The notes beneath the pieces were generated by a model. That model made no database searches. It saw nothing but the letters and a program-made list of their open reading frames with translations, and was not told where the DNA came from. The translations under genes and the position numbers were made by a program. A stretch of 64,000 nt of DNA from positions 452,948 to 516,947 of the forward strand of contig JAKITS010000001.1 of assembly GCA_021648085.1 (NCBI GenBank), written 5' to 3'. The DNA comes from Candidatus Magasanikiibacteriota bacterium (GTDB lineage Bacteria > Patescibacteriota > Patescibacteriia > Magasanikbacterales > UBA922). Each line of letters starts with the position of its first letter. Within the stretch, counting starts at the first letter, position 1. This document shows, piece after piece, positions 14,912 through 63,710 of this stretch.

Positions 14912-14921
14912 GGAGTATAAA

Positions 14922-15224: not shown

Positions 15225-15228
15225 TCTA

Positions 15229-15262
15229 AAACTACACACTTAAGGGTGTAGTTTTTTATTTA
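15229..15262. terminator. bidirectional terminator hairpin (aaactacac…gtgtagtttttt)
   Basis: Inverted repeat ctacacac/gggtgtag with flanking A/T runs, between the convergent genes 14922-15224 (+) and clp (-). Confidence 0.5.
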
Positions 15263-17985
15263 ATCTCTAACTCTAAACCTCTCCCCAAAATCACGACATC
15301 TCCCCTATTTAATTTATCTTCCAAAAACAAATCTGCCAACTTATTTTCTACATTGTCTTGAATAGCTCTTCGCATTGGTCGTGCTCCAAAATCTGGATCA
15401 TAGCCAATATCAGCTAATTCTTCTAGTGCAATACTCTCCACTTTAAACTCAAAACCTTTCTCTTCCAATTGTACACCAACTTGTTTTAACATCAAACTTG
15501 CAATTTGTTTTATCTCTTCTTTTTCTAAAGTTTTGAACAAAACTATAGCATCAAACCTATTTAAAAACTCTGGTGCAAAATATTCACGAAGCTCATTTCG
15601 CATCATTTTTTGCCGAACCTCTTCTACCTCTACACCACTATTTAATTGTTCTTGTGCAAAAGCTGTGCCAGCGTTTGAAGTAGAAATTATAATTGTATTT
15701 GTAAAATCTACCGTTCTACCAACACTATCTGTAAGACGCCCGTCATCAAAAACCTGTAAAAATAAATTTAAAACATCTTTGTGTGCTTTTTCTAATTCGT
15801 CTAGCAAAACAAGTGAGAAAGGTTGTTTCATTACAGCTTCGGTGAGAATTCCTGTTCCTTGTTTTTCTGGTTGCCCAATCAATCTGTAAATACTATTTGG
15901 CTCTTGGTACTCACTCATATCTATTCTTATCATATTGTTTTCTGAGCCAAAATAATTATTTGCAATTGTTTTAGCAAGTTCTGTCTTTCCTACTCCGGTT
16001 GGACCTAAAAATAAAAACACAGAAATTGGCTTTTTCTCACTCCGCATACCAGCTCTTGCGCGCTTTAGTGCGTTTGCAACAAGCTCAACAGCATCGTCCT
16101 GACCAATTACCCTTTTGTGCATTTCATCTCCCAAATTCATCAACTTACTCTTTTCTTCACTTGTTACAGAAACCGCTGGAATTCCAGTCTTGCTTTTTAT
16201 AATATATCCAATATCTTCCTCGGTCACCAGCTGAGAATTTGGTTTTGAGTGAACATAAGAACCAGCTTCATTTACAATTTCTAGCGCACTTCCTGGTAAA
16301 CTCTTGTTGTTTATAAACTTCCTTGCCAAAACTACAGATTGTTCAATTGCAGAATAAGAAAAAAATACTTTATTTTTACTTTCAACTCCCCCAATTTTGG
16401 ATTCTACCACTTGAATTGCCTGATTATTATCCAATTCTTTTATGTCCACAGTTTCAAAAACAGAGCTTAAATTACTTCCAGAAATAAATTTTTTATAGCC
16501 ACTATTTGTACTTGTTGCAAAAGTTAAAATACTTCCACCACTCAAATGTTCGCTTAGGCTATTTGCAACTTCATTTGCCAACTCACTAGCCTCTGTATTC
16601 AATAATTCATCTAAATTTTCTAAAAATAAAATTACATTTCCAGCTCTAGCTACTTCACTCATAATTGTTAGAACCCTTTCTTTTGCCCCACTCGGCGTAG
16701 TGCCAGCGGTTAGTGAGCTCATAGAAATTTTTACCAATCTTTTGTCAAATAATCTTTCTGGAACATTGTTTTCTATCATTTTTCTTGCAAGCCCTTCTAC
16801 TAATGTTCTTTTGCCAACACCATAATCTCCCACAAGTAAAATACTAGACCTACCACTATCCACAACTCTAAAAATTTCTTCGAATTCTTTTTTTCTGCCA
16901 ATACATGGTGCAATTGCCCCATATTTTGCCATTGCAGTGAGATCTTCGCTAAATCTATTTAAATAGGGAGTAGAGACCGCAGTCATAGCTCTATCAATTC
17001 CATGTTTACTACGGAAAGATCCTGCTTTTTTAAGTTCTTTGTACTCTTCTCGCAATTTTTCTCGCAAAGAAAACCAAGCCGTCACATTTTCTAATTTATC
17101 ACTGTCAATTTTTAAATCATACAAAATTTCTTGTAACCTCTCTGATTGTTCCAAAGTACAGACTAACAAATCCAAAACACCAACATATTTTTGACCATTT
17201 TTGAAAGCTAATTCATAAGCTTTGAAAATAATCTGATAAAAATCCTCTCTAAACTCTGGTAAATGCACACTTTTTCCAGGTGTCAGAAGTAAATCCTGAT
17301 ATTGCTCTTTGAAAAATTTTGTCGGTACTTCAAGCCGAAGCATTGAAGAAGAGACAAGTTTAGAGTCTAATAGTCCCATAAATAAATACTCCGAATTTAC
17401 CTCTACTGATTTTTTATTTTTAGCTGTCAAATATACTTTTCCCAAAACATCTAGTGCGTCTTCCGTAAAACTTTTTGATATGTCTTTTTGTTGAGTTTTT
17501 TTAAACTTATCGACAATACTCCAATCTGATGAAGTAAGGTTTGAAAATTCTTGCTTTTCAAACTCTAATTTCTTTTTATAATTATAACTCTCAACTTTTC
17601 CAGCCTTTTTACCAAAAACCATTGTTCTATAAATAAAATAGCAAAAAAAGAAAATAGAAATTAAAAACAAAGCAACCAAATAATTACCAGAACCAAACCA
17701 AAAATCTGAAGTAAAAAAAGAAATAACTTCTAAATCTCTATAAAGAAAAAAAGAGAGTAATCCAAAGAAGATAAACGATAGAAACAAAGAAAGCGTTATT
17801 CTAATTTTATCCAAAACCTTTCTTCCTTTTTTAAGTTTTATATTATATTCAGTTATTTCGCTACCCCAATTTAACAATAAATTTCTACGGACCAAAACAG
17901 CCAAAAATCCACTGCAAGCAGTTTTGAATTTTCCCGGATCAGAACAGATTATAACTGGTAATTGTTCACCTTTTTGAAACTTCAT
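15256..17985 (-). CDS. Clp/Hsp100-family AAA+ ATPase (ClpC/ClpA-like, short M-domain) with N-terminal transmembrane anchor and apparently degenerate D1 ATP site
   Basis: Two hydrophobic helices at aa ~63-83 and ~100-120. Clp_N repeats (EDALDVLGKVYLTAKNKK…, …YQIIFKAYELAFKNGQKYVG). D1 Walker A reads GDYGVGKRT instead of GxPGVGKT, and D1 Walker B reads ILFLENLDEL instead of ILFIDELH. D2 is canonical (GPTGVGKT; LLDELEKAH). Confidence 0.85.
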   Translation of the reverse strand: MKFQKGEQLPVIICSDPGKFKTACSGFLAVLVRRNLLLNWGSEITEYNIKLKKGRKVLDKIRITLSLFLSFIFFGLLSFFLYRDLEVISFFTSDFWFGSGNYLVALFLISIFFFCYFIYRTMVFGKKAGKVESYNYKKKLEFEKQEFSNLTSSDWSIVDKFKKTQQKDISKSFTEDALDVLGKVYLTAKNKKSVEVNSEYLFMGLLDSKLVSSSMLRLEVPTKFFKEQYQDLLLTPGKSVHLPEFREDFYQIIFKAYELAFKNGQKYVGVLDLLVCTLEQSERLQEILYDLKIDSDKLENVTAWFSLREKLREEYKELKKAGSFRSKHGIDRAMTAVSTPYLNRFSEDLTAMAKYGAIAPCIGRKKEFEEIFRVVDSGRSSILLVGDYGVGKRTLVEGLARKMIENNVPERLFDKRLVKISMSSLTAGTTPSGAKERVLTIMSEVARAGNVILFLENLDELLNTEASELANEVANSLSEHLSGGSILTFATSTNSGYKKFISGSNLSSVFETVDIKELDNNQAIQVVESKIGGVESKNKVFFSYSAIEQSVVLARKFINNKSLPGSALEIVNEAGSYVHSKPNSQLVTEEDIGYIIKSKTGIPAVSVTSEEKSKLMNLGDEMHKRVIGQDDAVELVANALKRARAGMRSEKKPISVFLFLGPTGVGKTELAKTIANNYFGSENNMIRIDMSEYQEPNSIYRLIGQPEKQGTGILTEAVMKQPFSLVLLDELEKAHKDVLNLFLQVFDDGRLTDSVGRTVDFTNTIIISTSNAGTAFAQEQLNSGVEVEEVRQKMMRNELREYFAPEFLNRFDAIVLFKTLEKEEIKQIASLMLKQVGVQLEEKGFEFKVESIALEELADIGYDPDFGARPMRRAIQDNVENKLADLFLEDKLNRGDVVILGRGLELEIK

Positions 17986-18341
17986 AATAAACCAATAGAG
18001 CTAATAAAAACTACAAGTAGTACAGATGGGAAACTAATCCAAAACAAAACAAAAACCCCAACAATCCAAATCCAACCGATGACCAAAAATCCACGAACAA
18101 CCCCATTTACAAGTCGCATAAAAAAACTCATAATTCTACCCTGCAAATCATACTGCCCAAACATTGGCACAAAGAGATTTTTAAACCACAAAAGTGGAGC
18201 TAAGCGTAAATTTGCCTGCCCAACCAAATTATAAGAAAAAATCAAAATCTGCTGTAAACCTTTTGTAAACCACCAAACTGGAAAATACAAAAAATCTAGC
18301 AGAAAATCTATAATTAATTTTTGTATAATTGCTATCCACAT
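17982..18341 (-). CDS. small integral membrane protein (119 aa), start overlaps clp gene (ATGA)
   Basis: Hydrophobic ORF. 4-nt overlap with the downstream clp start suggests co-transcription. Confidence 0.5.
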   Translation of the reverse strand: MWIAIIQKLIIDFLLDFLYFPVWWFTKGLQQILIFSYNLVGQANLRLAPLLWFKNLFVPMFGQYDLQGRIMSFFMRLVNGVVRGFLVIGWIWIVGVFVLFWISFPSVLLVVFISSIGLL

Positions 18342-18443
18342 ACATATATAATACCATATTTTTAGAGGTGGAACTAACTTGACCTTTTTATAAAAAATAA
18401 TGTACTATATTTCTATACGATCATTACAATAAGAGGGGTAAAA

Positions 18444-19211
18444 ATGAACAGAGAGGAGAGTGTCTATTCTTGGGAAAATGATTATAATATTTCTTCACAA
18501 AATTTAATAGCACAAAATAAAAGTGGTAAAATTATATCTTTATTAGTAGTGTGCAATAACGAATATGGTAAATATTTTTTAATTAGATTTGTACAACCAA
18601 ATATAGACAAAGAAGTATGGAAAAAAATACAAACAGGTATGCAAAAATATTGTGTAGAGAGTAATGAGGAAATTTCTTTTATTTTTAGTACTTACGAAAA
18701 TGGTAAACAAAAATCTTTGGAGTTGGCAAACAAAATTCTACAAAGTGCTGGTTTTGTTTTAGAAGAAAAATTAAAAGTTCAAAAAGAGTTTAAAACACTT
18801 TATAATACATGTTCAAATATAAGTCCTGAAACATTTGAAAATTTTTTAAAAAAAATTTATTTTTGGAAAATACTTACACCAACAATATATACGGCTTGCC
18901 AAAAAAATGGGGCTCAACTATTGTTTATATGTCAAAACAATAGCGGATACTGGCGAGTATCCCTAAATATAAAATATTTAGAGATACTTTTGCAAAAAAA
19001 TTATACAGAATTATTAGAACTAATTTCAAACTTATTTGAAAATTCTCCGATATCAACCCTATTTCCAGTTTTTCAAATACAAATGAATTATTTATACAAG
19101 GAGTGGAATATCGGCCCTTTTGAAGATCCTGAAAAAGGCTTAAAACAAATTCAAAATGTTTTTGACAAAGTTCTACATAAACTAGGTTTTATTCTTTATC
19201 CTCATAAATAA
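18444..19211 (+). CDS. hypothetical protein (255 aa)
   Basis: ORF with RBS agagggg upstream. No recognisable motifs. Confidence 0.5.
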   Translation: MNREESVYSWENDYNISSQNLIAQNKSGKIISLLVVCNNEYGKYFLIRFVQPNIDKEVWKKIQTGMQKYCVESNEEISFIFSTYENGKQKSLELANKILQSAGFVLEEKLKVQKEFKTLYNTCSNISPETFENFLKKIYFWKILTPTIYTACQKNGAQLLFICQNNSGYWRVSLNIKYLEILLQKNYTELLELISNLFENSPISTLFPVFQIQMNYLYKEWNIGPFEDPEKGLKQIQNVFDKVLHKLGFILYPHK

Positions 19212-19217
19212 AAATAA

Positions 19218-19246
19218 ACCACACTTTTCAAAAGTGTGGTTTTTTA
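19218..19246. terminator. bidirectional terminator (aaccacacttttcaaaagtgtggtttttt)
   Basis: Perfect 9-bp stem ccacacttt/aaagtgtgg between the convergent gene ends. Confidence 0.55.
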
Positions 19247-19264
19247 AATTATATTTTTATTTTT

Positions 19265-19630
19265 CTACCTTCTAGCAAAAACTCCAGCAGTCACATCCAC
19301 ATAATCAATTTTGGAAATAGGAATCATCTCCAATTCTTGTAAACGATCTTGGATACTATGCATAGAACGATATTGTGAAATCTCAAAACTTAATTTATCA
19401 TTTTCACGCTCTAGTGATACTAGTTGTTTTTCCAAATCAGCAATTTGATAACCTTTTGTAGCCACAGAATTAACACTTCCCAAATACATAATCCCAAAAA
19501 AAGCAATCAAACAGAAAAGGAGTGCGCGAGTAGTTTTTGTCATAAACCACTTTCGAGCTTTCAATTTCTCGTCTCGCATTGCATGATTTTTATTGTGATT
19601 GTTTACACGCATATTATATTTTTTCTGCAA
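19265..19630 (-). CDS. ftsL: FtsL-like cell division protein (single TM + coiled coil)
   Basis: Position immediately downstream of rsmH (17-nt overlap). One TM helix (ALLFCLIAFFGIMYLG) followed by a coiled-coil segment (LEKQLVSLERENDKLSFEISQY). Confidence 0.6.
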   Translation of the reverse strand: MQKKYNMRVNNHNKNHAMRDEKLKARKWFMTKTTRALLFCLIAFFGIMYLGSVNSVATKGYQIADLEKQLVSLERENDKLSFEISQYRSMHSIQDRLQELEMIPISKIDYVDVTAGVFARR

Positions 19631-20507
19631 CTCTTAATTTTGCACTTCTAGCTCGCCTATTTTCATTTAATTCTTCTTGTCCTGGCGAAACTGGCTTTTT
19701 TGTAATAATTTTCAACTTATTTTGCTGTGATTTGAAAAAATGTTTTACAACCCTATCTTCCAAAGAATGAAAACTTATAACAGCCAGTCTTCCGCCTGTT
19801 TTCAAATTTTCTACAGCTTGAGGAAGTACATCTTTCAAAATACGGATCTCATCGTTTACAGCAATTCGCAGTGCTTGTAAAATTCTAGTTGCCGGATGTA
19901 TTTTTTCTCTTGAACCCTTCTTTTTGTAAATATCCATTGCAATTTCTACCAACTGACCTGTTTTAGAAAATTTTTCTTTTCTTCTTTTTTCAATTACAAC
20001 TTTTGCAATATCTTTGGCAAATCTCTCTTCACCATATTCACGAAAGATTTTCTCCAATTCTTCAAAACTCGCATTGTTTAATATATCTGCTGCTGTTTCA
20101 GAATTTTCATGATCTTGGGCATTTCCACCAAACCTCATATCTAACAGTTCATCTTTTTGAAAAGAAAATCCACGACCACGCTCTTCAAACTGTGGACTAG
20201 ACCAGCCTAAATCAAACAAGATTGCATCCACTTCTTTAAAAACCTCTTTTTCCAAAATCTTGCTAAAGTTAGAAAAATTATCTCTGACCAATACAACATT
20301 TTCTTCTGAAGATTCTAAAAATTTTTTTGCACGCAAAATTGCCTCGGGATCCATATCTATCCCAAGCAATTTTCCATTTGGTAAAATCTTTTCTAAAATG
20401 AGCTCCGAATGCCCTGCATCGCCAAGCGTCCCATCCACGACCTTCATTCCAGACTTCAAATTTAACAACTCTACCACCTCATTCACTAATACTGGTTTAT
20501 GTCTCAT
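19614..20507 (-). CDS. rsmH: 16S rRNA (cytosine1402-N4)-methyltransferase RsmH
   Basis: MRHKPVLVNEVVELL…VDGTLGDAGHS… matches the conserved RsmH/MraW N-terminus and SAM-binding region. Confidence 0.9.
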   Translation of the reverse strand: MRHKPVLVNEVVELLNLKSGMKVVDGTLGDAGHSELILEKILPNGKLLGIDMDPEAILRAKKFLESSEENVVLVRDNFSNFSKILEKEVFKEVDAILFDLGWSSPQFEERGRGFSFQKDELLDMRFGGNAQDHENSETAADILNNASFEELEKIFREYGEERFAKDIAKVVIEKRRKEKFSKTGQLVEIAMDIYKKKGSREKIHPATRILQALRIAVNDEIRILKDVLPQAVENLKTGGRLAVISFHSLEDRVVKHFFKSQQNKLKIITKKPVSPGQEELNENRRARSAKLRVAEKI

Positions 20508-20518
20508 ACTTCCTTATT

Positions 20519-20950
20519 TTATACCCCCAAATCCGCCATCTGCTCTGCTATTTCACTACTTTCTTGTTCTGCTTTTGTAGTATATTCCACCCACTTTTCC
20601 TGATCCCAAATCTCCAATCTATTGTACAAACCTGCCACAATAGTTGTTTTTTTGAGCCCAGCAAAACTGCGCAAATATTCTGGCAAAACTATTCTTCCCT
20701 GCTTGTCTATATCCACATCCATTGCTCCAGCCAACATAAGTCTAGAAAACGCACGACTCTTGGCCTGACTAAAAGGCAAAGAAGCAAGTTTTTCCGCTAG
20801 CTTTTCCCATTCTTTTTTTGTATAAAGAAATAAACAATTGTCCAATCCACGAGTAATTACTGCACCACCTTTTAGATCTTCTCTAAATTTCTTTGGCACA
20901 GCCATTCTCCCCTTCTCGTCTAAATTGTGCTTGTATTCTCCAATAAACAT
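20519..20950 (-). CDS. mraZ: transcriptional regulator MraZ
   Basis: MFIGEYKHNLDEKGRMAVPKKFRE…; duplicated MraZ domain (DKQGRIVLPEYLR). Confidence 0.9.
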   Translation of the reverse strand: MFIGEYKHNLDEKGRMAVPKKFREDLKGGAVITRGLDNCLFLYTKKEWEKLAEKLASLPFSQAKSRAFSRLMLAGAMDVDIDKQGRIVLPEYLRSFAGLKKTTIVAGLYNRLEIWDQEKWVEYTTKAEQESSEIAEQMADLGV

Positions 20951-20984
20951 AATTTTTTTAATGAGGCAAACCTCTTTGTGGTGT

Positions 20985-27570: not shown

Positions 27571-29625
27571 TTATACCTTTTCCTTATTCTTCCTATTTTG
27601 CTGTTTTTTAAGTAATTTTATTTCATCTCTCAAAACAGTTGCCAACTCAAACTGCAATTCTTTTGCAGCTTTTTTCATTTCAAATTCCTTTTCTCTTATT
27701 ATTTTCTCAATTGGCCTGTCATCCCCTTTCAATTCTAATTCCAAAACTTTTTCCTGCAAAGTTAATTTTTTTGTTTTTTTGGAACTCTTCTTTTTCGTTG
27801 TAATTCCAAATTCCTCCAGCAAATTCTTTATTTCTTTTTCAATTGTTTTTGGAGTTATTTTATGTTTTTTATTATAAGCAAGTTGAATTTTTCTTCTTCT
27901 GTCTGTTTCTTTTATTGCTCGCCCCATAGAACCTGTAATTCTATCGGCATAAAGTATTACTTGTCCATCTACATTTCTAGCAGCACGACCAATAGTTTGC
28001 ACCAAGCTTGTTTCACTTCTCAAAAATCCTTCTTTATCTGCATCTAAAATTGCAACCAAAGAAACTTCTGGAATATCCAAACCCTCTCTCAACAAATTTA
28101 TACCAACCAAAACATCAAATTCGCCTCTGCGCAAACCGGTAATTATTTCAATTCGCTCCATAGTTTTTATGTCGCTGTGCAAATATTTTACTTTTATTCC
28201 TTTTTCTTCCAGATATCCACTCAAATCTTCTGCCATTTTTTTTGTAAGTGTTGTCACCAAAATTCTTCCACCACTCTCAACTTTTTTATCAATCATTTTC
28301 ATTAAATCATCTATTTGAGAAATATTTTTTGCAGTTTCTGTGACAGGCTTAATGATAATTTCTGGATCAATTAAACCAGTTGGACGCACAATTTGCTCCA
28401 CTATTTGACCGCTTCTTTCTAATTCATATTCAGCAGGAGTTGCAGAAGAATAGATAACCTTATCAGTCCTTTTTTCAAACTCCTCAAATTTTAATGGTCT
28501 ATTGTCTCGTGCACTCGGAAGTCTAAAACCATATTCCACCAAATTGTCTTTTCTAGCTTTATCACCCATATACATTGCGCGGATTTGTGGCATTGTCACA
28601 TGAGATTCATCTATAATTGTCAAAAAATCCCCAACTCCGTGTGTGAAATAATCCATAAGAGTGGCAGGCGGTTCGCCTGGCGCGCGCCCATCAAAATGCC
28701 TAGAATAATTTTCAATTCCGTTACAATATCCCAAATTTTTGATCAATTCCAAATCATAATTTACCCTTCTCTTCAACCTTTCATATTCCAAAACTTTTCC
28801 TTGTTTTTTAAATTTCTTCAATTGTTCATCTGCTTCTTTTCGAATTGTTTTTAAAGCTCGCGCACGCAAATCTGACCCAACTACATAATGCTTTGCCGGA
28901 AAAAACCAAGAATCTTCTTGCTCGCGAATTATCTTTCGAGTTATAGGGTCAATTATTTCAATTTTATCTATTTTTTCACCAATTTCAAATCTATAAATTT
29001 TCTCCTCGTTTGCTGGCATAATCTCAAAAAACTGCCCACGCATTCGAAAAGTTCCTCTTTTCAGTTCCAAACTTGTTCGCTCAAACTGCATTTCTATAAG
29101 TTGAGCCAACATTCCCCTTCTATCCATTTTTTGCCCACAAGTGAGGTGAAGTACAATCCTCTCATATTCTGCGGGTGAACCCAAACCATAAATAGCCGAA
29201 ACAGACGCAACAATAATTACATCTTTTCTACTCAAAATAGCCTGTGTACAAGCATGGCGAAGTCGCTCTATCTCATCATTTATCTGAGCTTCCTTTTCTA
29301 TATAAGTGTCCGATCCAGAAAGATATGCTTCTGGCTGATAATAATCATAATAACTTACAAAATATTCCACTGCACTGTCTGGAAAAAAACCCCTAAACTC
29401 TGTACAAAGTTGCGCCGCCAAAGTTTTGTTATGCGCAATCACCAAAGTTGGCAAACCTGTTTTTTCTATCACATTTGCCAAAGTAAAAGTCTTTCCAGAA
29501 CCAGTAACACCTAGCAAAGTCTGGTGTTCAATATTTTTGTTCAAACCACTCACCAACTGCTTTATAGCTTTGGGCTGGTCTCCTGCTGGCTTGTATTTAG
29601 ATTTTATTTTAAATCCTTTTTTCAT
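27571..29625 (-). CDS. uvrB: excinuclease ABC subunit B
   Basis: Helicase motifs (GVTGSGKTFTLANVI; DESHVT; …TIGRAARN). C-terminal UVR domain (KELQFELATVLRDEIKLLKK). The longest-ORF start (29646) lies inside a repeat element, so start MKKGFKIKSKYKPAGDQP at 29625 is preferred. Confidence 0.93.
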   Translation of the reverse strand: MKKGFKIKSKYKPAGDQPKAIKQLVSGLNKNIEHQTLLGVTGSGKTFTLANVIEKTGLPTLVIAHNKTLAAQLCTEFRGFFPDSAVEYFVSYYDYYQPEAYLSGSDTYIEKEAQINDEIERLRHACTQAILSRKDVIIVASVSAIYGLGSPAEYERIVLHLTCGQKMDRRGMLAQLIEMQFERTSLELKRGTFRMRGQFFEIMPANEEKIYRFEIGEKIDKIEIIDPITRKIIREQEDSWFFPAKHYVVGSDLRARALKTIRKEADEQLKKFKKQGKVLEYERLKRRVNYDLELIKNLGYCNGIENYSRHFDGRAPGEPPATLMDYFTHGVGDFLTIIDESHVTMPQIRAMYMGDKARKDNLVEYGFRLPSARDNRPLKFEEFEKRTDKVIYSSATPAEYELERSGQIVEQIVRPTGLIDPEIIIKPVTETAKNISQIDDLMKMIDKKVESGGRILVTTLTKKMAEDLSGYLEEKGIKVKYLHSDIKTMERIEIITGLRRGEFDVLVGINLLREGLDIPEVSLVAILDADKEGFLRSETSLVQTIGRAARNVDGQVILYADRITGSMGRAIKETDRRRKIQLAYNKKHKITPKTIEKEIKNLLEEFGITTKKKSSKKTKKLTLQEKVLELELKGDDRPIEKIIREKEFEMKKAAKELQFELATVLRDEIKLLKKQQNRKNKEKV

Positions 29626-46815: not shown

Positions 46816-49800
46816 AAAAAACCCGCATTTCGCGGGTTTTTTATGTTTTTATTTTAACTCTTTTCCTATTTCGTATTCTTCATCATTTTTTATCGTCACT
46901 ATTCTATCCCACCTAAAATTCAATCTACTAAAGGCTTCCTCGTTTTTAATATGTCTTTTTACTTGTTTTGTCTGGTCTGTTAGGTCTGGCTCTAGCCTAA
47001 ATACTTCTGGGTTATTTTCATATTTAACAAGTGTGTAGTTTGGATGGCGATTTGTATAATCTATTATCTCACCAATTGTGTATTTATTGAGAAGTCTTGG
47101 GTCAATATCTTCTATCCAATTCCAACTATAGTTTAGTTTATTAAATACTTCTTCAGAGTCTATCCAATATTTTTGATTACCAAGAAGTAGGTACACCATT
47201 GGATCTGTTGTAATTTTTACAAGAGCACCATATTTTGGATCATATTTTGGACCCCAAGGCATAAAACCTAAAGTGTCATCTTCTACTGTTTCTAGTCTTT
47301 TCTCTTCTACTATCTCCACATTATTCCAAGAGTCAAAGTATGTGTAGAAAACATCTGCCCTACTAAAAGCTCTTTTTTTACAGTCTGGTGTAACAAGATA
47401 TACGGCAGAAGAGTTTGGTGTTTTATATACTCCACCTTCTTTTAGACTGCAGTCTGAACCTTGTTTTTCTGTTTGAGTATCAGTCTCAGTTTCTGTATTT
47501 AACTCATTTAACAGAATTGTGTCAAAATATGTTGATGCTGTTCCACCGCTTGAAAGAAATTTAGAATAAACAGTTTTTTCTCCATTTCCAGAAGGCAGTT
47601 TCCAGTTTAATTTTGAGGTAAATGGTGTAAATACTGAACCAGCAAAATCTTTTGAATTTGAAACTGCCATTCTATCTGCATCTAATATGTTAAAAGTTAT
47701 AGTTACATCTCTTGACTCTGTTGTATAAGCTCCATAATTTATTACAACTGGATTAGAAATTTCTGATTCATCTGTTAAATTTATTAGATTAATTTTCACA
47801 GAATCATAATTTAAAAACTCTGCATACTCTATTTCCAAATCTAAAACTCCATCTTTGTTTGTGTCTACTTTTTGACTCACACCCTTTATTAGGTTCAATA
47901 TAATTGGGTCTGACTCAATTGTTACCGTAATACTCTCTTTTGCTATTCTAGAGACAAACACACTATGAAAAGAAGCTCCAACTTCTGCAGATTTTTCTTC
48001 TTGCAGGAAAAACTCTGTAAATAATAATCCTGACGATACACTTTCCGTAGCTGGAGTTTTGGATGGAGTTGGTGGTGGTGCAAAGAATCCACCGCCGGTA
48101 GACGCAACATCGTCATCTGTAATAGTTGCGGTTACACTTGCGATAGTTAAGCTGTCAAAGTTAGAGTCTGAGCTTGCAGATGTGTTTGAGATTATAGTTG
48201 TAGTCTCGCCATCAACCTCGCTATCATCTGTAGCTGTGACTGTCACAGTTTGTTCTGTATCCCAATTTGCATTTGTAAAGGTGAGGTCAGAGGAAGAAAG
48301 ACTAACTTCTGAGTTTGATAGTGCGGCTGACACAGTTACATCGTCCGTAGGTTGTGCGTCTAAAACCGCAGTGTATGTGTCAGTTGTTGACCCTTCTGTC
48401 ACAGAAACAGACGAAAGAGAGATTGTAACTCCTGCTGTATCATTGTTTGTAATTGTATATGTGTAAGTTGTAGTAGAACCTAGCGAACCTCCAACAGGGT
48501 TTGATATTGTTATTATTAGAGTTTCATCATTTTCAACCAAGTCATCATCTACTACAACCAAACTCAAAGAAGTTGTTGTGTTTCCATTTGTAATTGAAGC
48601 CGTTCCGCTAGAAAGTGTGTAATCTGTTCCACTTCCTGTTGCTGTTCCTCCTGTTATTGCATAATCTACTGAGACATCACTTACTACACTTTGATCTGAA
48701 GAAATTAAGACAGAGACTGCTGTTGTTCCCTCATCTCCAGAAGCTGTGGTTGCAGAAAAATTAATCTCATAATCAAACTGCCAACGAGTATTATTTCCAG
48801 AATCACTACAACCGGTTGTACATACTATTTGTGTACTACTTAAGTTATTATTATCTTTTACATCTAGATATTGTGCGCTCGTTGTACTTTTTGGATCAAA
48901 CTTTGTCTGTGTTCCAGAGCTACTACTTCTTAGGCTCAAAAGATTTCCAGATGTTCCTGCCAAAGTTAGAGTTCCATTTACTGTTGTGGTCGTACTAGCT
49001 GGAAGTGTAAAAGTGTTTGCAGATGAGTCTGTTTTAGTTAGGTTATAAAAAGTATTTGCACCAGAAATTGTCTGGCTTGCGCCAACAAAGTCTACCGTAC
49101 TTGAGTTTGGTGTAAGTGTACCTCCTGTGTTTAGGAAGTCTCCTGTTATATTTAATGTTCCAGTTGCTGAATATATTCCAGATGCCAAAGTTATATCATT
49201 ATTTATATTTGTTGTTGCAACACTCGGAGCCAAACTATCTCCAGAATCTGTAAAATTTATAGAAATATCATAAAAATCCACAATAGAAGTAGAATAAGCA
49301 TCTGAACTTGCATCACCATTTCCAACATATTCTACTGTTCCTGAATCTGTGTCATTTGTAAGTGTTACAGTCTCACCTCCTTGAATACGAAGTGTTCCAT
49401 CGTTGCTAAATGTACTTGAAACAGTTAAATTATTTCCATTTAATGCGACTGTTCCAGAGCTAATTGTCATTGTGCTTGTAGCTACCGTACTCGTATTGAA
49501 TGTATATGTTCCACCTCCTGTGAAAGAAACATCATAAAAAGTTGAAAAACTTGGAAGAGTGTATGAACTAGCTCCATAAAATATAGCTGAACTTCCAGAG
49601 CTAAAACTAGGATAAGTTGCGTTTGTTGTAACAGTCTCACCACCTTGCATTTTTAAAATTCCACCATCTTGTACCACTACTGTTCCAGAAGATCCATTTA
49701 CTATTAAAGTATTTCCGTTTAGGTCTAAGGTTCCTTCTATTATGTTTAAATCTGTATTCGCATAATCCATTGTTAAACCAGAATTTAATGTGACAGTTCC

Positions 49801-52357
49801 TGATGATTTATTTATGTTTATATCTGAATTTATTTTATCTTCCACTCCTGTTAAATCTATTGTCTGATCTTGGGTTCCCGTTAGGTTGAATGTGGCCACA
49901 TCTAAATTGTCAAATGTGCTGGCCATTGAAAAGTTTGTTCCAGTAAATTCTAATATATTACCAGGCATCCTACCATCAATAAGATTTAAAGTAGAAGAAA
50001 CTACTAATGTATCTCCTGAAGCAATAGTGACTGTTTGACCACTATCTCCTTCTATTGTTAAGTTTGTAAAAGTAAAAGTTGTTGGTACATCTATAGTTGC
50101 TGATGTTGAATGAGTATAATATAATGTAGTTCCATTTTCATAAACAGTAGCACCAGCTCCAATAGTAAGATTGTAAACAAGACTTGTTGTTCCGGTTGGG
50201 AATGTAAAAGTTCCGCCTGTAATAAAAAGACCCTCGTAAATATATGTGATTGAAAGATCACCTGTTCCACCATCGAAAGTACCTCCAGAAACTATTAAAG
50301 CCCTATAACTTTCCATTAATGCACTTTGCATATTGAAAGTTCCACCAGAGATATTTATAGCATAGGAGTTAAAATCCAAATAGTTTGAATTTTGAGCATC
50401 AAAAGTTCCTCCTGTCATTGTAAAAGCACCGTTAAACACAATGTCAGTAGAACTTGCGTTTATTGTTCCAGCTTCTAAATTTAAAGTACTTTCAAAAGTA
50501 GTAGAAGCTACACCAGAAAATTCTATTGTTGTATTCGTTGCGTTTAGTGTAAATTTAGGCATATCGACATCTGCTGGAATTATTATATTCCTTGTGTCTG
50601 TTCCTGTTATTTTGAGAAGTCCTGTTCCACCATCAAATGTAGTGGCCATAGAAAATCCACTTCCAGGACCTATAAATTCAAAAGTACCTGAACCATCCAA
50701 AGCACCATCAACTAAATTTAAAGTAGAAGAAACTACTAATGTATCTCCTGAAGCCATGCTCACTGTTTGATTAGTACTTCCATCAATTATAAAGTTTGTA
50801 AAAGTAAAAGTTGTTGGTACATCTATAGTTGCTGATATTGAATGAGTATAATATAATGTAGTTCCATTTTCATAAACAGTAGCAGTTGCACCAATTGTTA
50901 AATTTCTTTTTAAAGTTGTTGTTCCTGTTGGGAATGTAAAAGTTCCTCCTGAAATTGTAAGATTTGCATATGTATATTGAATTGTAAGATTTCCTGTTCC
51001 ACCATCGAAAGTTCCTCCAGAAACTGTTAAAGTGTTATAACTTTCCATTAATGCACTTTGTAAACTAAAAATACCACCTGATATAGTGGTAGAGCCATTA
51101 ATATCCAAATAATTTGAGTTTTGTGCATCAAAAGTTCCTCCTGTCATTATAATAGATTTAAAGCTTATATCCGTAGAGCTTGCATTTATAGTACCAGCAT
51201 CCAAATATAAATAACCTTCAAAAGTTGTAGACGCTACTCCAGAAAATTCTATTGTTGTGTTTACTGCGTCCAATCTAAGTAAAGGAAGCTTAACATTTGC
51301 ATCAAGTATAATATTTCTTGTTTCTACTCCTGATATCTTAAGCTGTCCAGATGATGCAGAAGATCCGCCATCAAATGTTGTAGCCAAAGAAAAACCACTC
51401 CCAGGACCTGTAAATTCTAAAACTCCAGTGCCATCTAGCTCTCCGTCTATAAGCGTAAGAGTGGAAGAGACTATTACAGTGTCACCAGTATAAATAGCTA
51501 ACCGCTGACCGCTTCCACCAGCAATTGTAAGGTTTGTAAAAGTAAAAGTTGTTGGAACATTTAAAACAGCACTAGTTATAAAAGTCATTATCAAATTTGT
51601 GCCATTTTCATATACAGTAGCACCAGCTCCAATAGTTAAATCGTCTGTAATAGTTGTTGTTCCGGTTGGGAATGTAAAAGTTCCACCTGAAATTGTAAGA
51701 TCTGCATAACTATACTGGAATATCATAGTTCCTGTTCCACCATCGAAAGTACCTCCTGAGAAAACGAAATTATTATATGGTTCGAATACTGAAGATTGCA
51801 TATTAAATGTACCTCCTGAAATTGTAGTAGATCCATTAATATCAATAATCGTATCCCCTGCATTAAATGTGCCATCAGCTTGTGTAAAATTTCCAGTAGT
51901 AAGCGTAACACCTGTTGCAACAGTAATAGTCCCAGAATAACCAGCATCTATTTGAAAAGTTGTAACAGTAGAATCAACATCAATAGTTGCATTGTCCACA
52001 TCTCCACCATCAAAAATAGCTGTGTCTCCAGAAACAGGATGAGTAGTATCATTTGCCCCACCGGTTGTGGTGGACCAATTTGTGTCAGCAGAAAAATTTC
52101 CTCCAGAAGTTCCTATCCAATATTTGGTGGCTGCTTGTGACGCCGTAGGAATTAGTGAAAAAAATAAAAATAAAAAAATAAAAAAGAATAATTTTCTATA
52201 CAAAAAATTATTTTTAGGTTTAGCTATCATATATAAAAATAAATAAAAATCTCTATTAATCTTTTAATTATATCTTTTAATTACAATAATATCAAATTGG
52301 GAATTGTGAATAAAAAATTATTAAAAACAAAAAAAGACGCTCAGCGTCTTTTTTTTA
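46816..52357. repeat. segmental duplication copy 2 (~5.54 kb) of 6834-12364
   Basis: Same as copy 1. Includes a second copy of the rplU-type terminator hairpin (52336-52357) although no rplU is nearby. Confidence 0.9.
46849..52230 (-). CDS. giant secreted repeat protein, paralog 2 (1793 aa; 2 aa substitutions vs copy 1)
   Basis: Identical architecture to 6867-12248. The differences I could find are I66V and I70T plus synonymous changes. Confidence 0.85.
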   Translation of the reverse strand: MIAKPKNNFLYRKLFFFIFLFLFFSLIPTASQAATKYWIGTSGGNFSADTNWSTTTGGANDTTHPVSGDTAIFDGGDVDNATIDVDSTVTTFQIDAGYSGTITVATGVTLTTGNFTQADGTFNAGDTIIDINGSTTISGGTFNMQSSVFEPYNNFVFSGGTFDGGTGTMIFQYSYADLTISGGTFTFPTGTTTITDDLTIGAGATVYENGTNLIMTFITSAVLNVPTTFTFTNLTIAGGSGQRLAIYTGDTVIVSSTLTLIDGELDGTGVLEFTGPGSGFSLATTFDGGSSASSGQLKISGVETRNIILDANVKLPLLRLDAVNTTIEFSGVASTTFEGYLYLDAGTINASSTDISFKSIIMTGGTFDAQNSNYLDINGSTTISGGIFSLQSALMESYNTLTVSGGTFDGGTGNLTIQYTYANLTISGGTFTFPTGTTTLKRNLTIGATATVYENGTTLYYTHSISATIDVPTTFTFTNFIIDGSTNQTVSMASGDTLVVSSTLNLVDGALDGSGTFEFIGPGSGFSMATTFDGGTGLLKITGTDTRNIIIPADVDMPKFTLNATNTTIEFSGVASTTFESTLNLEAGTINASSTDIVFNGAFTMTGGTFDAQNSNYLDFNSYAINISGGTFNMQSALMESYRALIVSGGTFDGGTGDLSITYIYEGLFITGGTFTFPTGTTSLVYNLTIGAGATVYENGTTLYYTHSTSATIDVPTTFTFTNLTIEGDSGQTVTIASGDTLVVSSTLNLIDGRMPGNILEFTGTNFSMASTFDNLDVATFNLTGTQDQTIDLTGVEDKINSDININKSSGTVTLNSGLTMDYANTDLNIIEGTLDLNGNTLIVNGSSGTVVVQDGGILKMQGGETVTTNATYPSFSSGSSAIFYGASSYTLPSFSTFYDVSFTGGGTYTFNTSTVATSTMTISSGTVALNGNNLTVSSTFSNDGTLRIQGGETVTLTNDTDSGTVEYVGNGDASSDAYSTSIVDFYDISINFTDSGDSLAPSVATTNINNDITLASGIYSATGTLNITGDFLNTGGTLTPNSSTVDFVGASQTISGANTFYNLTKTDSSANTFTLPASTTTTVNGTLTLAGTSGNLLSLRSSSSGTQTKFDPKSTTSAQYLDVKDNNNLSSTQIVCTTGCSDSGNNTRWQFDYEINFSATTASGDEGTTAVSVLISSDQSVVSDVSVDYAITGGTATGSGTDYTLSSGTASITNGNTTTSLSLVVVDDDLVENDETLIITISNPVGGSLGSTTTYTYTITNNDTAGVTISLSSVSVTEGSTTDTYTAVLDAQPTDDVTVSAALSNSEVSLSSSDLTFTNANWDTEQTVTVTATDDSEVDGETTTIISNTSASSDSNFDSLTIASVTATITDDDVASTGGGFFAPPPTPSKTPATESVSSGLLFTEFFLQEEKSAEVGASFHSVFVSRIAKESITVTIESDPIILNLIKGVSQKVDTNKDGVLDLEIEYAEFLNYDSVKINLINLTDESEISNPVVINYGAYTTESRDVTITFNILDADRMAVSNSKDFAGSVFTPFTSKLNWKLPSGNGEKTVYSKFLSSGGTASTYFDTILLNELNTETETDTQTEKQGSDCSLKEGGVYKTPNSSAVYLVTPDCKKRAFSRADVFYTYFDSWNNVEIVEEKRLETVEDDTLGFMPWGPKYDPKYGALVKITTDPMVYLLLGNQKYWIDSEEVFNKLNYSWNWIEDIDPRLLNKYTIGEIIDYTNRHPNYTLVKYENNPEVFRLEPDLTDQTKQVKRHIKNEEAFSRLNFRWDRIVTIKNDEEYEIGKELK

Positions 52358-58213: not shown

Positions 58214-58729
58214 CTATCTACTCAGCTCTACCTCTGCGCTAAGCTCGTGCTCACAAGCACGAATAGTCACAAGATCTGCAGATGATTTTTCCAGAGTATA
58301 ACCTGTAATAGATGCAGACCAAGCACCGTCTCCATTTGGACTAATAGGGATTGAGCCCAAGTATCCCTGTGTCACCATATCTGAAATATCCACACAGACA
58401 GACTGTGTTGGATCTGTAGTACAAAAACTTGTCACATTTGAAGCTGTAGCCCCAGTCACACAAGTTCCGATAAGATAAACCTGCCCAACAGTTGTGTTTG
58501 TAATTGTAGTAAGGTATGTACCGCCGTTGTCAATTTGATCCACCTTAACAGCCTGAAGAATGTTATTTACATCTGAAAATCTTCTTGCATCTCTTGCATC
58601 TTTAAAACGCTTTGCAGGATTTAGAGCTACAAAAATTAAAAGAGCCAGAATTGCAATAATTGCAATAACTAAAAGTAATTCGATTAAAGTAAAACCTTTT
58701 CTTTTTTCTAAGTACTCTTTAATTTTCAT
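58214..58729 (-). CDS. type IV pilin-like protein (class III signal peptide)
   Basis: MKIKEYLEKRKGFTLIELLLVIAIIAILALLIFVAL is a prepilin cleavage/methylation motif G|FTLIELL. C-terminal Cys pair. Confidence 0.8.
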   Translation of the reverse strand: MKIKEYLEKRKGFTLIELLLVIAIIAILALLIFVALNPAKRFKDARDARRFSDVNNILQAVKVDQIDNGGTYLTTITNTTVGQVYLIGTCVTGATASNVTSFCTTDPTQSVCVDISDMVTQGYLGSIPISPNGDGAWSASITGYTLEKSSADLVTIRACEHELSAEVELSR

Positions 58730-58849
58730 AAAAAAATAACGAAATAATAATACATACATTATACCACAAAATAAAAAATATTTAAATTTATAAGACAAAA
58801 CAAAAAACAAGCCTTATGCTTGTTTTTTGTTTTTGAAGTTTTTTGAAAA

Positions 58850-59365
58850 CTAACGAGTTAAAGTAATCTCTGTTGTGTTCTCATCTTCACAAGCTCTAAT
58901 AGTTACAGACCCATTTGCAGCTTTTGCAATAGTGTATCCTGTGTTTGCAGCTGACCATGTTGCGGTACCATCAGGACTTATAGGAATAGATCCTAAATAA
59001 CCATCTGTCACAAGTCCGGTTAAGTCTGCACAAGCATCTTGAGTTGGTTCTGTTGTACAAAGATAATTTGTTACTGTGGTTGTTGCTCCAGTAGTACAAG
59101 TACCGACCATATAAACCTCGGAAGCTGTCGCACTAGTAATACTAGCTAGGTACGGACCTTTATTATCCACCTGGTCAACCTTAATTGCGGTCAAAATATT
59201 ATTTACATCCGAGAACCTTCTTGAATCACGAGCGTCTGCAAACCTAGTTGCAGGATCTAACGCTACAAAAATTAAAAGAGCCAAAATCGCAATAATTGCG
59301 ATTACCAAAAGCAATTCGATTAAAGTGAAACCTTTTGCTTTTGCCAAAGTTTTTTTCATTTGCAT
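58850..59365 (-). CDS. type IV pilin-like protein, paralog of 58214-58729
   Basis: MQMKKTLAKAKGFTLIELLLVIAIIAILALLIFVAL. Same N-terminal 40 aa as its neighbour but a divergent C-terminal domain. Confidence 0.8.
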   Translation of the reverse strand: MQMKKTLAKAKGFTLIELLLVIAIIAILALLIFVALDPATRFADARDSRRFSDVNNILTAIKVDQVDNKGPYLASITSATASEVYMVGTCTTGATTTVTNYLCTTEPTQDACADLTGLVTDGYLGSIPISPDGTATWSAANTGYTIAKAANGSVTIRACEDENTTEITLTR

Positions 59366-59684
59366 ATGCTATGAATTATATAAATAATAATTAATAAATA
59401 ATCTTACGAATTTAATTATACCATATTTATTAATTTTTTTTATATTAGACTTGTGTATAACTTACAAATTCTCCTCGTATAGATGCATTTCTAGACTATT
59501 AAAATAAACTGATTTTTTAGTATGTTTTTATATTATAATTGTGCATTTCATAAACATAGATAATACATATAATTTATAAAATTTTATTTATAAGTTCTAT
59601 TCAAGAAACTATCAAAAAAATATCCTGTTGGATATTTTTGTACACTCCAAAAGAATCTCACTACTCACCTCTTCGGGTTGCGCT

Positions 59685-59824
59685 CCTAAGAACCTTCAGG
59701 TTCTTAGGAAAACCTCCTCTACAAGTAGGGGAAAGTTTTCCCCTACCACCCCTTAGTTCGAATCCCTTGGCGTCAAAAAAATACCATTTCAGGTATTTTG
59801 TTTGTACACGCCAAGGGATTCGAA
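59685..59824. other. hairpin-rich non-coding element with inverted 17-bp tRNA T-arm/acceptor-like repeats (ttcgaatcccttggcgt / acgccaagggattcgaa); degenerate tRNA-derived sequence or att-like site
   Basis: Perfect hairpins cctaagaacc-ttca-ggttcttagg (59685-59708), gtagggg-N8-cccctac (59725-59746) and aaatacc-N5-ggtattt (59779-59799). GGTTCGAATCC-like T-loop strings occur in both orientations. No cloverleaf can be completed (see rejected). Confidence 0.35.
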
Positions 59825-59972
59825 CCCGAATATGCAGGTTTTGAAATGTCACTTAACCTAGCAAAATTGCTAAAATAAGCGAAATTTACGACTTCGCTAA
59901 AATCTCAATTTTCGCTGAAAAACGACAAAAACTGAATTTTTGGGCAGATTTTGGGCAGATTGATCTCAAAAC

Positions 59973-60669: not shown

Positions 60670-61583
60670 TTAGTAAGGTACATTTATGGGTACATAATCT
60701 AAATATTCCCAATCATCATCGTCATCATCTATAGTATCAACGTAAACATCTGCTTGGTATGTTCCTGCTTGACTTAGATGTAAAGAATGCCATGTATACC
60801 CATGCTCCCAAACATAAGGGCTGACGGAATTCCATCCAGAAGTTTGGGTCGCATATACTTCGTCATTACGGTAAAAAATTGTCTTAAATCTATGTTCTTC
60901 TCGGATATTATGAATACCTGATAAAACATAAACTGTTTGACCTGTATAATAAGTATATGTTTCTGTTGTACAAGAGTAAACCCAGTTTGTTGATGAGCTT
61001 CCAGTTATACCTCTACAGGCTTTGGTACTCCAATCACTTTCCAACTGCCTATATTCATTAAAAACATATTCGTTTTCAGTTGTGGAGCCTAGTCTATACA
61101 CGTGAAGGTATAAAGTTGAATAAGTGTCCATCCAAGAATCTATATCCCAGTCATGCACACCAACCGTATTGCTAGAAACAAAATTAGCATCTACTACTCT
61201 GATAACGCCACTACCAAGGTCTTCCAAAAAAAAATGGCTGTGTGCATGCCTGTTACAAAAGTCGTGTTATTATATGCACTACAAGATTCATAACCTGAAG
61301 ATGTATTAATTTGAATCACATCGCCTAGTTGGGCGTTTGTAATTCCACCAGACACTTCAGAACCAAGATCAAGATAAGCTTGGCAATATCCTGTACCAAG
61401 AGTAGCACCTAATTCTTGGTTGATTACTTGTTGAACAAACCCCTTACACTCAAAAGGGTAAACATTTTCAGTGTCATAGCTAAGAGCAGTGCCAGCTAAT
61501 TCATCATTGGTAAAAGCATATACACTTGAAACACAAAAAAACATAACACAAAATAAAATAAAGATTTGTGCGTACTTTCTCAT
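60670..61583 (-). pseudogene. secreted protein gene split by frameshift at T9 homopolymer (coding strand) - pseudogene or phase-variable gene
   Basis: ORFs 61194-61583 (signal peptide MRKYAQIFILFCVMFFCVSSVYA…) and 60670-61227 overlap at A9/T9 (61226-61234). Adding one T joins them in frame (…TGMHTAIFFLEDLGSGVIRVVDANF…) to give a ~305-aa protein. Confidence 0.6.
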
Positions 61584-61746
61584 TTTCTCTCTCCTCTGCT
61601 CGGTTTTGGGTTGTTGTGAAGGAACATTTTTTCCGAGCGTTGGCAGCAGTTTAAACTATTTTTTATTAGTTGTCAAGTCTTTTTTAACAAATAGTATTTT
61701 TTTGTTTTTAATTTATAAGAATTCTATTTGAATTATTTAATACATT

Positions 61747-62338: not shown

Positions 62339-62833
62339 TTAAAATAATTTTTTATTTAATTTTGTAATAGAAGAAATTTTTTCAATTAAAGTATTATGTA
62401 TTATTACAGGAATTTCTTTTTCACCTAAATGAAAAGCTACTATTGTTCTATGGCGTCCATCATTAAAAGAAATATTAGGTAAATTATTTATGAAAATTTC
62501 TGGTGGATCAATAAATCCCCCATCACCCCAATGTTCTAACAATTTTGCGATTCTAAAATCACGTTCGTCGATACCATTAAATAATATATCGGGTTTTAAC
62601 TTTGTATGACCCATTTCTCCAAAATCTGCTTTATTGATTAATTCTTTTGTATTTACAAGATATATAGAATAATCTTTTAAACCAATAAGCTTGTAATACT
62701 TAGATAAATATTTTTTATTAGTCCCATAAGCCCACTTAACAATGATTTTATTAATTTCAAATAAACTTTTATTTTTATATGAATCAATATAATTTATGAT
62801 TTCTTTTGACAACTTCACTTTTGTGTTTTGCAT
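62339..62833 (-). CDS. ParB/sulfiredoxin-like nuclease-domain protein (164 aa)
   Basis: C-terminal motif FNDGRHRTIVAFHLGEKEIPVIIHN matches the ParB N-terminal domain signature (DGxHRxxAxxxLGxxxIPVxI). No parA nearby. Confidence 0.55.
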   Translation of the reverse strand: MQNTKVKLSKEIINYIDSYKNKSLFEINKIIVKWAYGTNKKYLSKYYKLIGLKDYSIYLVNTKELINKADFGEMGHTKLKPDILFNGIDERDFRIAKLLEHWGDGGFIDPPEIFINNLPNISFNDGRHRTIVAFHLGEKEIPVIIHNTLIEKISSITKLNKKLF

Positions 62834-62870: not shown

Positions 62871-63710
62871 TTAAATTTTTTCATAATTGGAAAAATAATT
62901 TAATAAATTATTTTCTTCATCTTCTTTAATTAATTTTATACAAATTAAATTTTTAACGGCTCTTGAACAGGCAACATAAAACAATTTCTGATTTTTAAGT
63001 TTTTTCTCTAATTCTTCATCGCTAAAAATAATTTGAAAATCATATTGATTCCAAAAAAATTCGTCTAAGACAATCATTACATTTTCAATTTCTCCACCTT
63101 TTGTTTTATGCATGGTTATATATTCAGATTTGATATTTTCATCTATATATTCTTGATAATTAATAATTTCTTTAAAAGACACCTTTTTATTTTTAAATAA
63201 ATCAAAATAAAATAGTTCCTTGTTATATTTTCGCAAAAATTCATTAAATAATTCTTTATCAACTTTCATTTGTTTTGCTGTTGTGTTACCGCTTTTATAA
63301 GAAGTTTTACGATCATGATAATCTTTATCTATACTTAATTCTCTTAAAAATTCATCTTTATTCTCAATGTAATAATTATAAGAACTAGTTTTTTTTACAA
63401 ACTTATTTTCAAAAGCTTTTCCAACTGCTTTTATACAATCTATTTCACCTATAATCAATTCATTAAAAAAATTGGACACTGTTTCTTGATCTTCGATTTT
63501 TATTAACTTGAATCCTGACTTATTTATTGTTGTTAATACTTTATTATAATTTCTATTTTTAAAATCAATACATAATTTAGCTAAGTCATTAATGCCTAGT
63601 CTATCAAAATCTTTTTTTATAAGTTCATTAATTTCCCAGGTTCTTAAGCTATACAAATTATATAAATTACTAAAACCTAATTCATTCGCAATAGATTTAT
63701 TAGTAAGCAT
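62871..63710 (-). CDS. protein with UvrD/PcrA-helicase C-terminal-like domain (motifs V-VI) and novel N-terminal region (279 aa)
   Basis: TMHKTKGGEIENVMIVLDEF (motif V-like TxHKSKGLEFxxVxL) and LFYVACSRAVKNLICI (motif VI-like LLYVAxTRAKxxL). No Walker A/B in the N-terminal 200 aa. Confidence 0.5.
   Translation of the reverse strand: MLTNKSIANELGFSNLYNLYSLRTWEINELIKKDFDRLGINDLAKLCIDFKNRNYNKVLTTINKSGFKLIKIEDQETVSNFFNELIIGEIDCIKAVGKAFENKFVKKTSSYNYYIENKDEFLRELSIDKDYHDRKTSYKSGNTTAKQMKVDKELFNEFLRKYNKELFYFDLFKNKKVSFKEIINYQEYIDENIKSEYITMHKTKGGEIENVMIVLDEFFWNQYDFQIIFSDEELEKKLKNQKLFYVACSRAVKNLICIKLIKEDEENNLLNYFSNYEKI

Follow-up and report, generated by a model that had tools for sequence, protein, structure and literature searches.

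A predicted secreted CHAP-type hydrolase gene split at a T9 homopolymer in a Candidatus Magasanikbacteria genome: frameshift, switch, or consensus error?

Two open reading frames (ORFs) that overlap on the minus strand of the 64-kb stretch of DNA analyzed here (the window) raise the question of whether they are two genes or two parts of a single one and, if the latter, what has divided it. Both are annotated as separate hypothetical proteins of a Candidatus Magasanikbacteria MAG, on a contig of 984,181 bp, and they meet at a run of exactly nine T, where the minus strand reads GCC ATT TTT TTT TGG AAG. The upstream ORF (ORF-N) continues for 11 residues out of frame beyond the run and terminates at TAG TAG; the downstream one (ORF-C), which lies in the -1 frame relative to ORF-N, starts with a TTG within the run and contains the sequence TIDDDDDDWEY. 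The original prediction took the pair for one secreted-protein gene interrupted at the homopolymer, to be repaired by a single additional T, and offered slipped-strand phase variation of a surface protein, a pseudogene, or a sequencing error as explanations. The features of the locus and the orthologues of the joined product are listed in Table 1.

Table 1 Features of the split gene (positions in the window) and orthologues of its joined product
Feature	Position	Strand	Remarks
Promoter-like TTGACA-17-TAAACT	61648-61676	-	Upstream of the gene; putative, a consensus match only (10 of 12 positions)
Shine-Dalgarno-like AGAGGAG	61591-61597	-	Candidate site read from the sequence; 7 nt ahead of the ATG at 61583
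ORF-N, 129 aa	61194-61583	-	NCBI MCF6276711.1, L3J07_02560; signal peptide and N-terminal half of the CHAP domain
Predicted signal peptide, aa 1-23, MRKYAQIFILFCVMFFCVSSVYA	61515-61583	-	Cleavage predicted before FTNDE, from sequence features
CHAP/NlpC-P60-like papain-fold domain	61078-61514	-	Spans the frameshift
Predicted catalytic Cys46 codon (ECKGF)	61446-61448	-	Invariant in the 18-sequence alignment; N-terminus of model helix 23-35
Predicted catalytic His114 codon (GMHTAI)	61242-61244	-	Invariant in the 18-sequence alignment; starts model strand 91-100
T9 homopolymer	61226-61234	-	Frame-change site; T7 is the canonical length, and both T7 and T10 restore the frame
Asp-Ala-Asn codons (VVDANF)	61183-61191	-	Third catalytic position; +17 and +19 from His (T7 numbering)
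ORF-C, 185 aa	60670-61227	-	NCBI MCF6276710.1, L3J07_02555; C-terminal third of the CHAP domain and Ig-like domain
C-terminal Ig-like beta-sandwich module	60673-61030	-	No Pfam family; 2-5 copies in other proteins
Orthologue P0001, 300 aa			68% identity
Orthologue P0003, 298 aa			65% identity
Orthologue P0004, 354 aa			62% identity

A search with the joined product yielded three distinct intact orthologues of 298-354 aa (DNA recovered as L001/L002, L003, and L004/L005), which are 62-68% identical to it, cover 92-97% of it, and read straight through the junction as a single ORF. ORF-N aligns with these orthologues through GMHTAIF and ORF-C from LEDLG onward, which places the change of frame within the T run, and on this alignment ORF-N and ORF-C are to be regarded as one gene. 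The arithmetic of the tract agrees with this: when its length was varied, addition of one T (T10) produced an ORF of 304 aa and removal of two (T7) one of 303 aa, whereas T8 and T9 were both out of frame. The interruption of one gene at T9 and the continuous product of about 305 aa that had been predicted are thus borne out by the orthologues, by the overlap of the ORFs, and by the change of frame at the run. The promoter-like site and the AGAGGAG sequence were found ahead of ORF-N only, and ORF-C has neither a Shine-Dalgarno sequence nor a signal peptide of its own. The N-terminal segment MRKYAQIFILFCVMFFCVSSVYA shows the n, h, and c regions of a Sec-type signal peptide with Ala at position -1 and Ala or Val at -3, and the same pattern is kept in orthologues (…NARA before FTNDE, …SAHA before FTGDE), which supports the earlier assignment of the product as secreted.

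The function of the gene is less directly accessible, because the repaired protein has no match in Pfam (E-values up to 1), NCBIfam, or PHROG and no significant sequence match in the PDB; its domains were therefore identified via homologues, profiles, and structure prediction. A HMMER profile search collected 343 relatives with E ≤ 0.001 that match either the N-terminal domain or the C-terminal module. Dozens of proteins contain the N-terminal domain (profile positions 7-168) as a single uninterrupted unit, some of them in fusion with VWA, PKD/fn3, dockerin, or SH3 domains, and the C-terminal module (profile positions 185-285) is present in 2-5 copies in other proteins. The CHAP family PF05257 matches across its whole model in five of the N-domain homologues, one of them (P0038) above the curated cut-off with 27.3 bits against 26 and the other four below it with 17.5-21.5 bits; the window protein itself fails the curated threshold of the CHAP and NlpC/P60 families, and a profile search of the PDB matched NlpC/P60 proteins at E-values of 0.2-0.7 only. 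In an alignment of 18 sequences, C23, H91, and N110 (domain numbering) are invariant and D108 is nearly so. AlphaFold2 modeled the CHAP-like domain from this alignment with a pLDDT of 91.2 and a pTM of 0.87, and the model has the arrangement of a papain-like fold, with the Cys at the N-terminus of a helix, the His at the start of a strand, and the Asp/Asn in the next strand. The top 24 matches of Foldseek against the PDB were all enzymes of the CHAP/NlpC-P60 superfamily, for the most part cell-wall hydrolases, among them Ly7917, PlyPy, LysK CHAPK, LysGH15, NlpC1/2, Tae3, and PcsB (probability up to 1.00, query-normalized TM 0.39-0.61, E-values down to 2e-5). The C-terminal module was modeled as an Ig-like beta-sandwich (pLDDT 89.2) whose closest folds are the Wzt O-antigen carbohydrate-binding domain, CARDB, and GH2 Ig-like domains at a TM of about 0.55; as the Ig-like fold is generic, a role of this module in glycan binding is a tentative proposal. 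Taken together, the gene would most likely encode a secreted enzyme that acts on peptidoglycan as an amidase or endopeptidase and carries a targeting domain, the activity being deduced from fold and conserved residues. An origin as phage endolysin was considered and rejected in view of the missing PHROG match and the absence of phage structural genes from the orthologue neighborhoods, in which PfkB, 2-Hacid_dh, Peptidase_M50, and AdoMet_dc are encoded. A paralogue of the split gene was sought within the 64-kb window and none was found.

The position of the break is decisive for what the assembled allele can do. The T run codes for the residues directly following the catalytic His (H-T-A-I-F/L-E-D), and the frame is lost four residues past this His and ahead of the Asp-x-Asn, which is encoded solely in the ORF-C frame. 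Since the break falls between these catalytic positions, neither ORF is functional alone: the ORF-N product would comprise a signal peptide and a half-domain devoid of three core strands, and ORF-C has no Cys, no His, no export signal, and no ribosome-binding site. The locus as assembled is thus a null allele. The native length of the tract can be read from a MAFFT alignment of 34 N-domains, in which HTAI is separated from the next Leu or Val by exactly one residue in all 33 homologues and no homologue has an indel anywhere between the His and the D-x-N. It follows that the native allele is T7 (ATT TTT TTG) and that T9 corresponds to T7 plus two. Repair to T10 generates Phe-Phe, that is, an insertion into an otherwise indel-free strand, with the junction peptide TAIFFLEDLGSGVIR in place of the TAIFLEDLGSGVIR of the T7 product. 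The single-T repair of the original prediction therefore joins the frames arithmetically, but it introduces a Phe that is missing from 33 of 33 homologues, and the canonical form is T7. In orthologue DNA the site reads ATT TTC TTG or ATC TTC CTA with at most four consecutive T; as there is no homopolymer at this site, the tract appears to be lineage-specific, in a comparison whose orthologues are only 62-68% identical and which lies outside the range of sister strains. It probably arose by a synonymous change of TTC to TTT in a genome of 32.5% GC.

Apart from the tract, the gene gives no sign of decay. Of the positions invariant in the three orthologues, the window protein has kept 94.6% in its N part and 86.1% in its C part, and the orthologues themselves score 78% to 96% on the same measure. 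No second lesion was detected; the promoter-like site, the Shine-Dalgarno-like sequence, and the conserved residues are retained, and the frame downstream of the break is open for 185 codons in spite of the low GC content. Retention of the conserved positions together with the lack of a second lesion implies that the frameshift is recent, not real, or compensated.

The window also permits an estimate of how unusual such a run is. A/T runs of 5, 6, 7, 8, 9, and at least 10 nt were observed 549, 270, 105, 32, 2, and 0 times, respectively, against 433, 181, 74, 31, and 12.5 expected for lengths 5 to 9 and 5.3 to about 9 for at least 10 nt under a first-order Markov model. From 5 to 8 nt the counts are therefore at or above expectation, whereas for 9 nt or more there are two observed versus 21 expected. 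The other 9-nt run is a T9 at 5771-5779 on the plus strand, located between the ORFs 4187-5638 and 5821-6156; given that only two such runs exist in 64 kb and the second is intergenic, the association of the frame switch with a T9 run is beyond chance. When all homopolymers of at least seven A/T or six G/C were screened for a frame switch, the run at 61226-61234 was the sole one in the window with a genuine signature. Two apparent switches, at 27766-27780 and 29383-29389, were dismissed as the antisense shadow of a 704-aa gene, and the other overlapping or adjacent ORF pairs on the same strand turned out to be complete separate genes, such as those for MraZ, MraW (model positions 2-309 of 309), an FtsL-like protein, MraY, and a DUF192 protein. 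Selection against slippery runs with a threshold at 9 nt has been reported for many bacteria (Baranov et al. 2005, PMC1088944), and 114-153 coding tracts of 9 or more were counted in Blochmannia genomes (PMC3017870). Judging from the window spectrum, this small AT-rich genome seems to be under strong selection against slippery tracts; those of at least 9 nt would be costly, which makes a T9 slippery but speaks against a genome in which such tracts serve as switches.

For the quality of the assembly, a direct duplication of 5.5 kb is of relevance, the two copies of which (6834-12365 and 46817-52357) are 40 kb apart and 99.66% identical. They differ by eight mismatches and two indels, namely T7 versus T6 at 6854 and, near 12251, an indel of 10 nt. 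The minus strand of each copy contains an ORF (of 1797 and 1804 aa, respectively) in which there are a Calx-beta domain and internal repeats of 1.1 kb with 77% identity, and either a recent duplication or a gene conversion of a giant surface protein accounts for the pair. That a repeat of this length and identity has been resolved on the contig hints at the use of long reads in its construction.

Four explanations of the split have to be weighed, two of which would give the tract a function. In the first of these, the locus is an adaptive contingency locus whose tract walks by slipped-strand mispairing between ON (T7, T10) and OFF (T8, T9) lengths and toggles a secreted cell-wall hydrolase within the population. 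A 9-nt homopolymer in the coding sequence of an exported protein, the length of which sets the frame and from which ON is one step (T10) or two (T7) away, is what would be expected, and two steps from T7 in a gene with no other lesion imply a tract that mutates far faster than its surroundings. Among the tracts known to switch phase, a T9 ranks near the lower limit of length. However, the C-interrupted site of the three orthologues holds no tract that could vary in length, the tenfold depletion of A/T runs of at least 9 nt is the opposite of what a tract-exploiting genome should display, the closest ON state (T10) puts a residue into the indel-free catalytic strand, and the protein appears to be a housekeeping-like enzyme outside the known classes of phase-variable surface antigen. 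Exact-pattern scans for T6-T11 alleles in GTDB genome contigs and JGI metagenome contigs gave no match, a protein-pattern scan retrieved no relative from the genome contigs and only a copy of the P0004-encoding gene from the metagenome contigs, and exact-protein look-ups of ORF-N, ORF-C, and both neighboring genes led to no other contig. We consider phase variation improbable, and the surface protein of the original prediction has given way to a CHAP-type hydrolase with no recognizable adhesin or antigen, tract-free orthologues, and a scarcity of long A/T tracts around it. In the second functional explanation, maintained recoding supplies the full-length enzyme by programmed U9-to-U10 transcriptional slippage or by -1 frameshifting at U UUU UUU and would hold a potentially lytic activity at a low level. 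T9 is a length at which bacterial RNA polymerase slips efficiently (PMC1088944), the run lies at the frameshift of an otherwise intact gene, and the 0-frame codons ATT TTT TTT TGG contain a heptamer that conforms to the X_XXZ_ZZN definition of slippery motifs (PMC4066793) and is in phase for a -1 shift, the one required. A -1 ribosomal slip, the insertion of one U into the transcript, and a T10 allele in the DNA would all result in the same Phe-Phe product, with its non-canonical extra residue near the catalytic His. The orthologues, though, have neither tract nor frameshift, and the 96 nt after the run fold with -15.8 kcal/mol compared to a mean of -19.9 for shuffled sequences (z = +1.46), i.e., less stably than these. 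As no stimulatory RNA structure is found downstream and the site is not conserved, programmed recoding is unlikely, and maintained recoding of either sort ranks as the least probable reading of the four. A broader proposal, that the T tract acts as a hypermutable or slippery switch at the level of DNA (T7-T10) or RNA (U9-U10) in an episymbiont of the Patescibacteria (candidate phyla radiation, CPR), where it would turn on and off or limit the production of a secreted CHAP hydrolase with a possible use against the host cell wall, is speculative, and we give it little credence; none of the findings puts a switch ahead of a simple recent frameshift or an error in the consensus.

A consensus error, by which a true in-frame tract (T10 with the extra Phe, or the canonical T7) was miscounted as T9, is a possibility of greater weight, though still a doubtful one. 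The run shares with one other the rank of longest homopolymer in the window, the gene is otherwise wholly intact and conserved, the resolution of the 5.5-kb repeat on a MAG contig of 984 kb points to long reads, for which homopolymer length is the main type of error, and one of the ten differences between the repeat copies is itself a T6/T7 length difference. On the other hand, the window contains 137 A/T runs of 7-8 nt free of frame breaks and the neighboring genes are full length, so that a systematic homopolymer error is absent; starting from T7 the miscount must amount to +2, unusual on any platform, and an error of -1 presupposes that the true allele is T10, with an inserted Phe that occurs in none of the 33 homologues. 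The explanation we prefer, and to which we would assign about an even chance, is a young frameshift from T7 to T9 that created a null allele, possibly a leaky one, of a secreted CHAP hydrolase. It is not free of difficulties either: a net gain of two bases requires either two separate slips or a single slip by two bases, which is rarer, T9 as one of the two longest homopolymers of the window is the most error-prone position for any platform, and the well-resolved repeat with its hint of long-read data weighs against it as well. The pseudogene and the sequencing error of the original prediction thus remain the leading explanations.

The young frameshift would have come about as follows. A gene whose product combines a signal peptide of the Sec type with a divergent CHAP/NlpC-P60 domain (Cys-His-Asp/Asn active site) and an Ig-like domain that possibly binds glycans would have carried the ancestral ATT TTC TTG (Ile-Phe-Leu), presumably converted to a T7 tract in the low-GC lineage. 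By replication slippage this tract would have grown by two bases to T9, which would break the frame at a distance of four residues from the catalytic His, ahead of the strand with the Asp-x-Asn, leaving a truncated half-domain predicted to be unable to fold and an ORF-C with neither ribosome-binding site nor export signal. A minor full-length product with one extra Phe might still be formed if RNA polymerase adds one U on U9 or the ribosome slips by -1. Such incidental leaky expression via slippage on U9 is plausible; it would represent an accident of the tract and not a selected switch.

Several further elements were noted in the window. In a 670-bp intergenic gap, a GC-rich and extremely structured element of 215 nt (59636-59850) contains three perfect hairpins and folds with minimum free energies of -95.6 and -83.2 kcal/mol on the two strands (z = -8.7 and -8.9); strings resembling tRNA 3' ends (GGTTCGAATCCCTTGGCG) form inverted-repeat arms in it. 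ARAGORN predicted no tRNA in this element, and its Rfam matches were sub-threshold, far below the gathering score, and to unrelated families; possible interpretations are an undescribed ncRNA, the remnant of an attachment site derived from a tRNA, and a repeat element. Type IV pilin-like genes occur as a tandem pair (58217-58813 and 58850-59365, minus strand); both have N-terminal methylation motifs, and they are 80% identical across 175 nt at their 5' ends. The similarity of an ORF of 279 aa (62871-63710, minus strand) to UvrD-like or phage DNA helicases is confined to the C-terminal part of the latter (positions 136-346 of 350 in the UvrD_C model; phrog_1967 positions 497-675 of 776), and this ORF may be a truncated remnant. 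Beside it, a 164-aa ORF (62339-62833) matches phrog_31328, a family of no known function, and a divergent P-loop gene (MITIITGKPGAGKTLF…) begins at about 63953 on the plus strand and runs past the window end at 64000. The region of the helicase-like and P-loop genes may constitute a mobile or defense islet adjoining the hydrolase gene. An intact fragment of the division and cell-wall (dcw) cluster at 12914-20983 (minus strand) comprises MraZ, MraW, an FtsL/DivIC-like gene, MraY (Glycos_transf_4) at a position further downstream, and the DUF192 gene.

As an event, an ordinary recent frameshift would be a new instance of a well-known kind. With regard to annotation, L3J07_02555 and L3J07_02560, now hypothetical proteins, should be merged into one frameshifted gene for a predicted secreted CHAP-type hydrolase, and both the CHAP sub-family and the Ig-like repeat module delimited here are missed by current Pfam, NCBIfam, and PHROG models. 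The loss of A/T runs at 9 nt and above indicates that slippery tracts have apparently been purged, in contrast to the situation in decaying insect endosymbionts. If the tract should prove to vary, it would provide a rare handle on the regulation of cell-wall-acting enzymes in ultrasmall episymbionts, and with a true switch the candidate phyla radiation would gain its first described locus of the contingency type or under the control of slippage.

Among known systems, the predicted enzyme finds its closest counterparts in the CHAP/NlpC-P60 hydrolases (PF05257; LysK CHAPK 4csh, Ly7917 5d74, PlyPy 5udm, PcsB 4cgk, and Tae3 4hz9). In its predicted structure it shares their fold and the layout with the Cys at a helix and the His at a strand, followed in the window protein by an acidic residue and an Asn at +17 and +19; it differs in its sequence, which is only 9-18% identical to those of the solved structures and matches no Pfam, NCBIfam, or PHROG model, and in being joined to an uncharacterized Ig-like repeat module. 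With the contingency loci of Campylobacter, Neisseria, Haemophilus, and Helicobacter the locus has in common a coding mononucleotide tract in the gene of an exported protein and a length that toggles the frame, but its tract is not common to the orthologues, and long tracts are depleted and not over-represented in the window. In mxiE of Shigella flexneri, RNA polymerase inserts one nucleotide at a U run and thereby fuses two overlapping ORFs (PMC1088944). The arrangement at the T9 run is alike in that one additional U in the transcript would join the ORFs; in mxiE, however, it represents the normal functional state, whereas here it is seemingly lineage-specific and splits a catalytic domain that is unbroken in all relatives. 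Rescue of homopolymer frameshifts by transcriptional slippage has been described, besides mxiE, for "pseudo pseudogenes" (Baranov et al. 2005, PMC1088944) and for genes of Blochmannia and Buchnera (Tamas et al. 2008; Williams & Wernegreen 2010, PMC3017870), in which a single indel lies in an A/T run of at least 9 nt. The endosymbiont genes and the T9 gene are otherwise intact, have single-ORF orthologues, and belong to small AT-rich genomes. In the T9 gene, however, the change is a net +2, so that a slip of +1 would leave one extra residue and a non-native protein, and, unlike Blochmannia, the window is nearly devoid of tracts of 9 or more; the 9-nt threshold of the slippage-rescue systems is nevertheless visible in its run-length spectrum.
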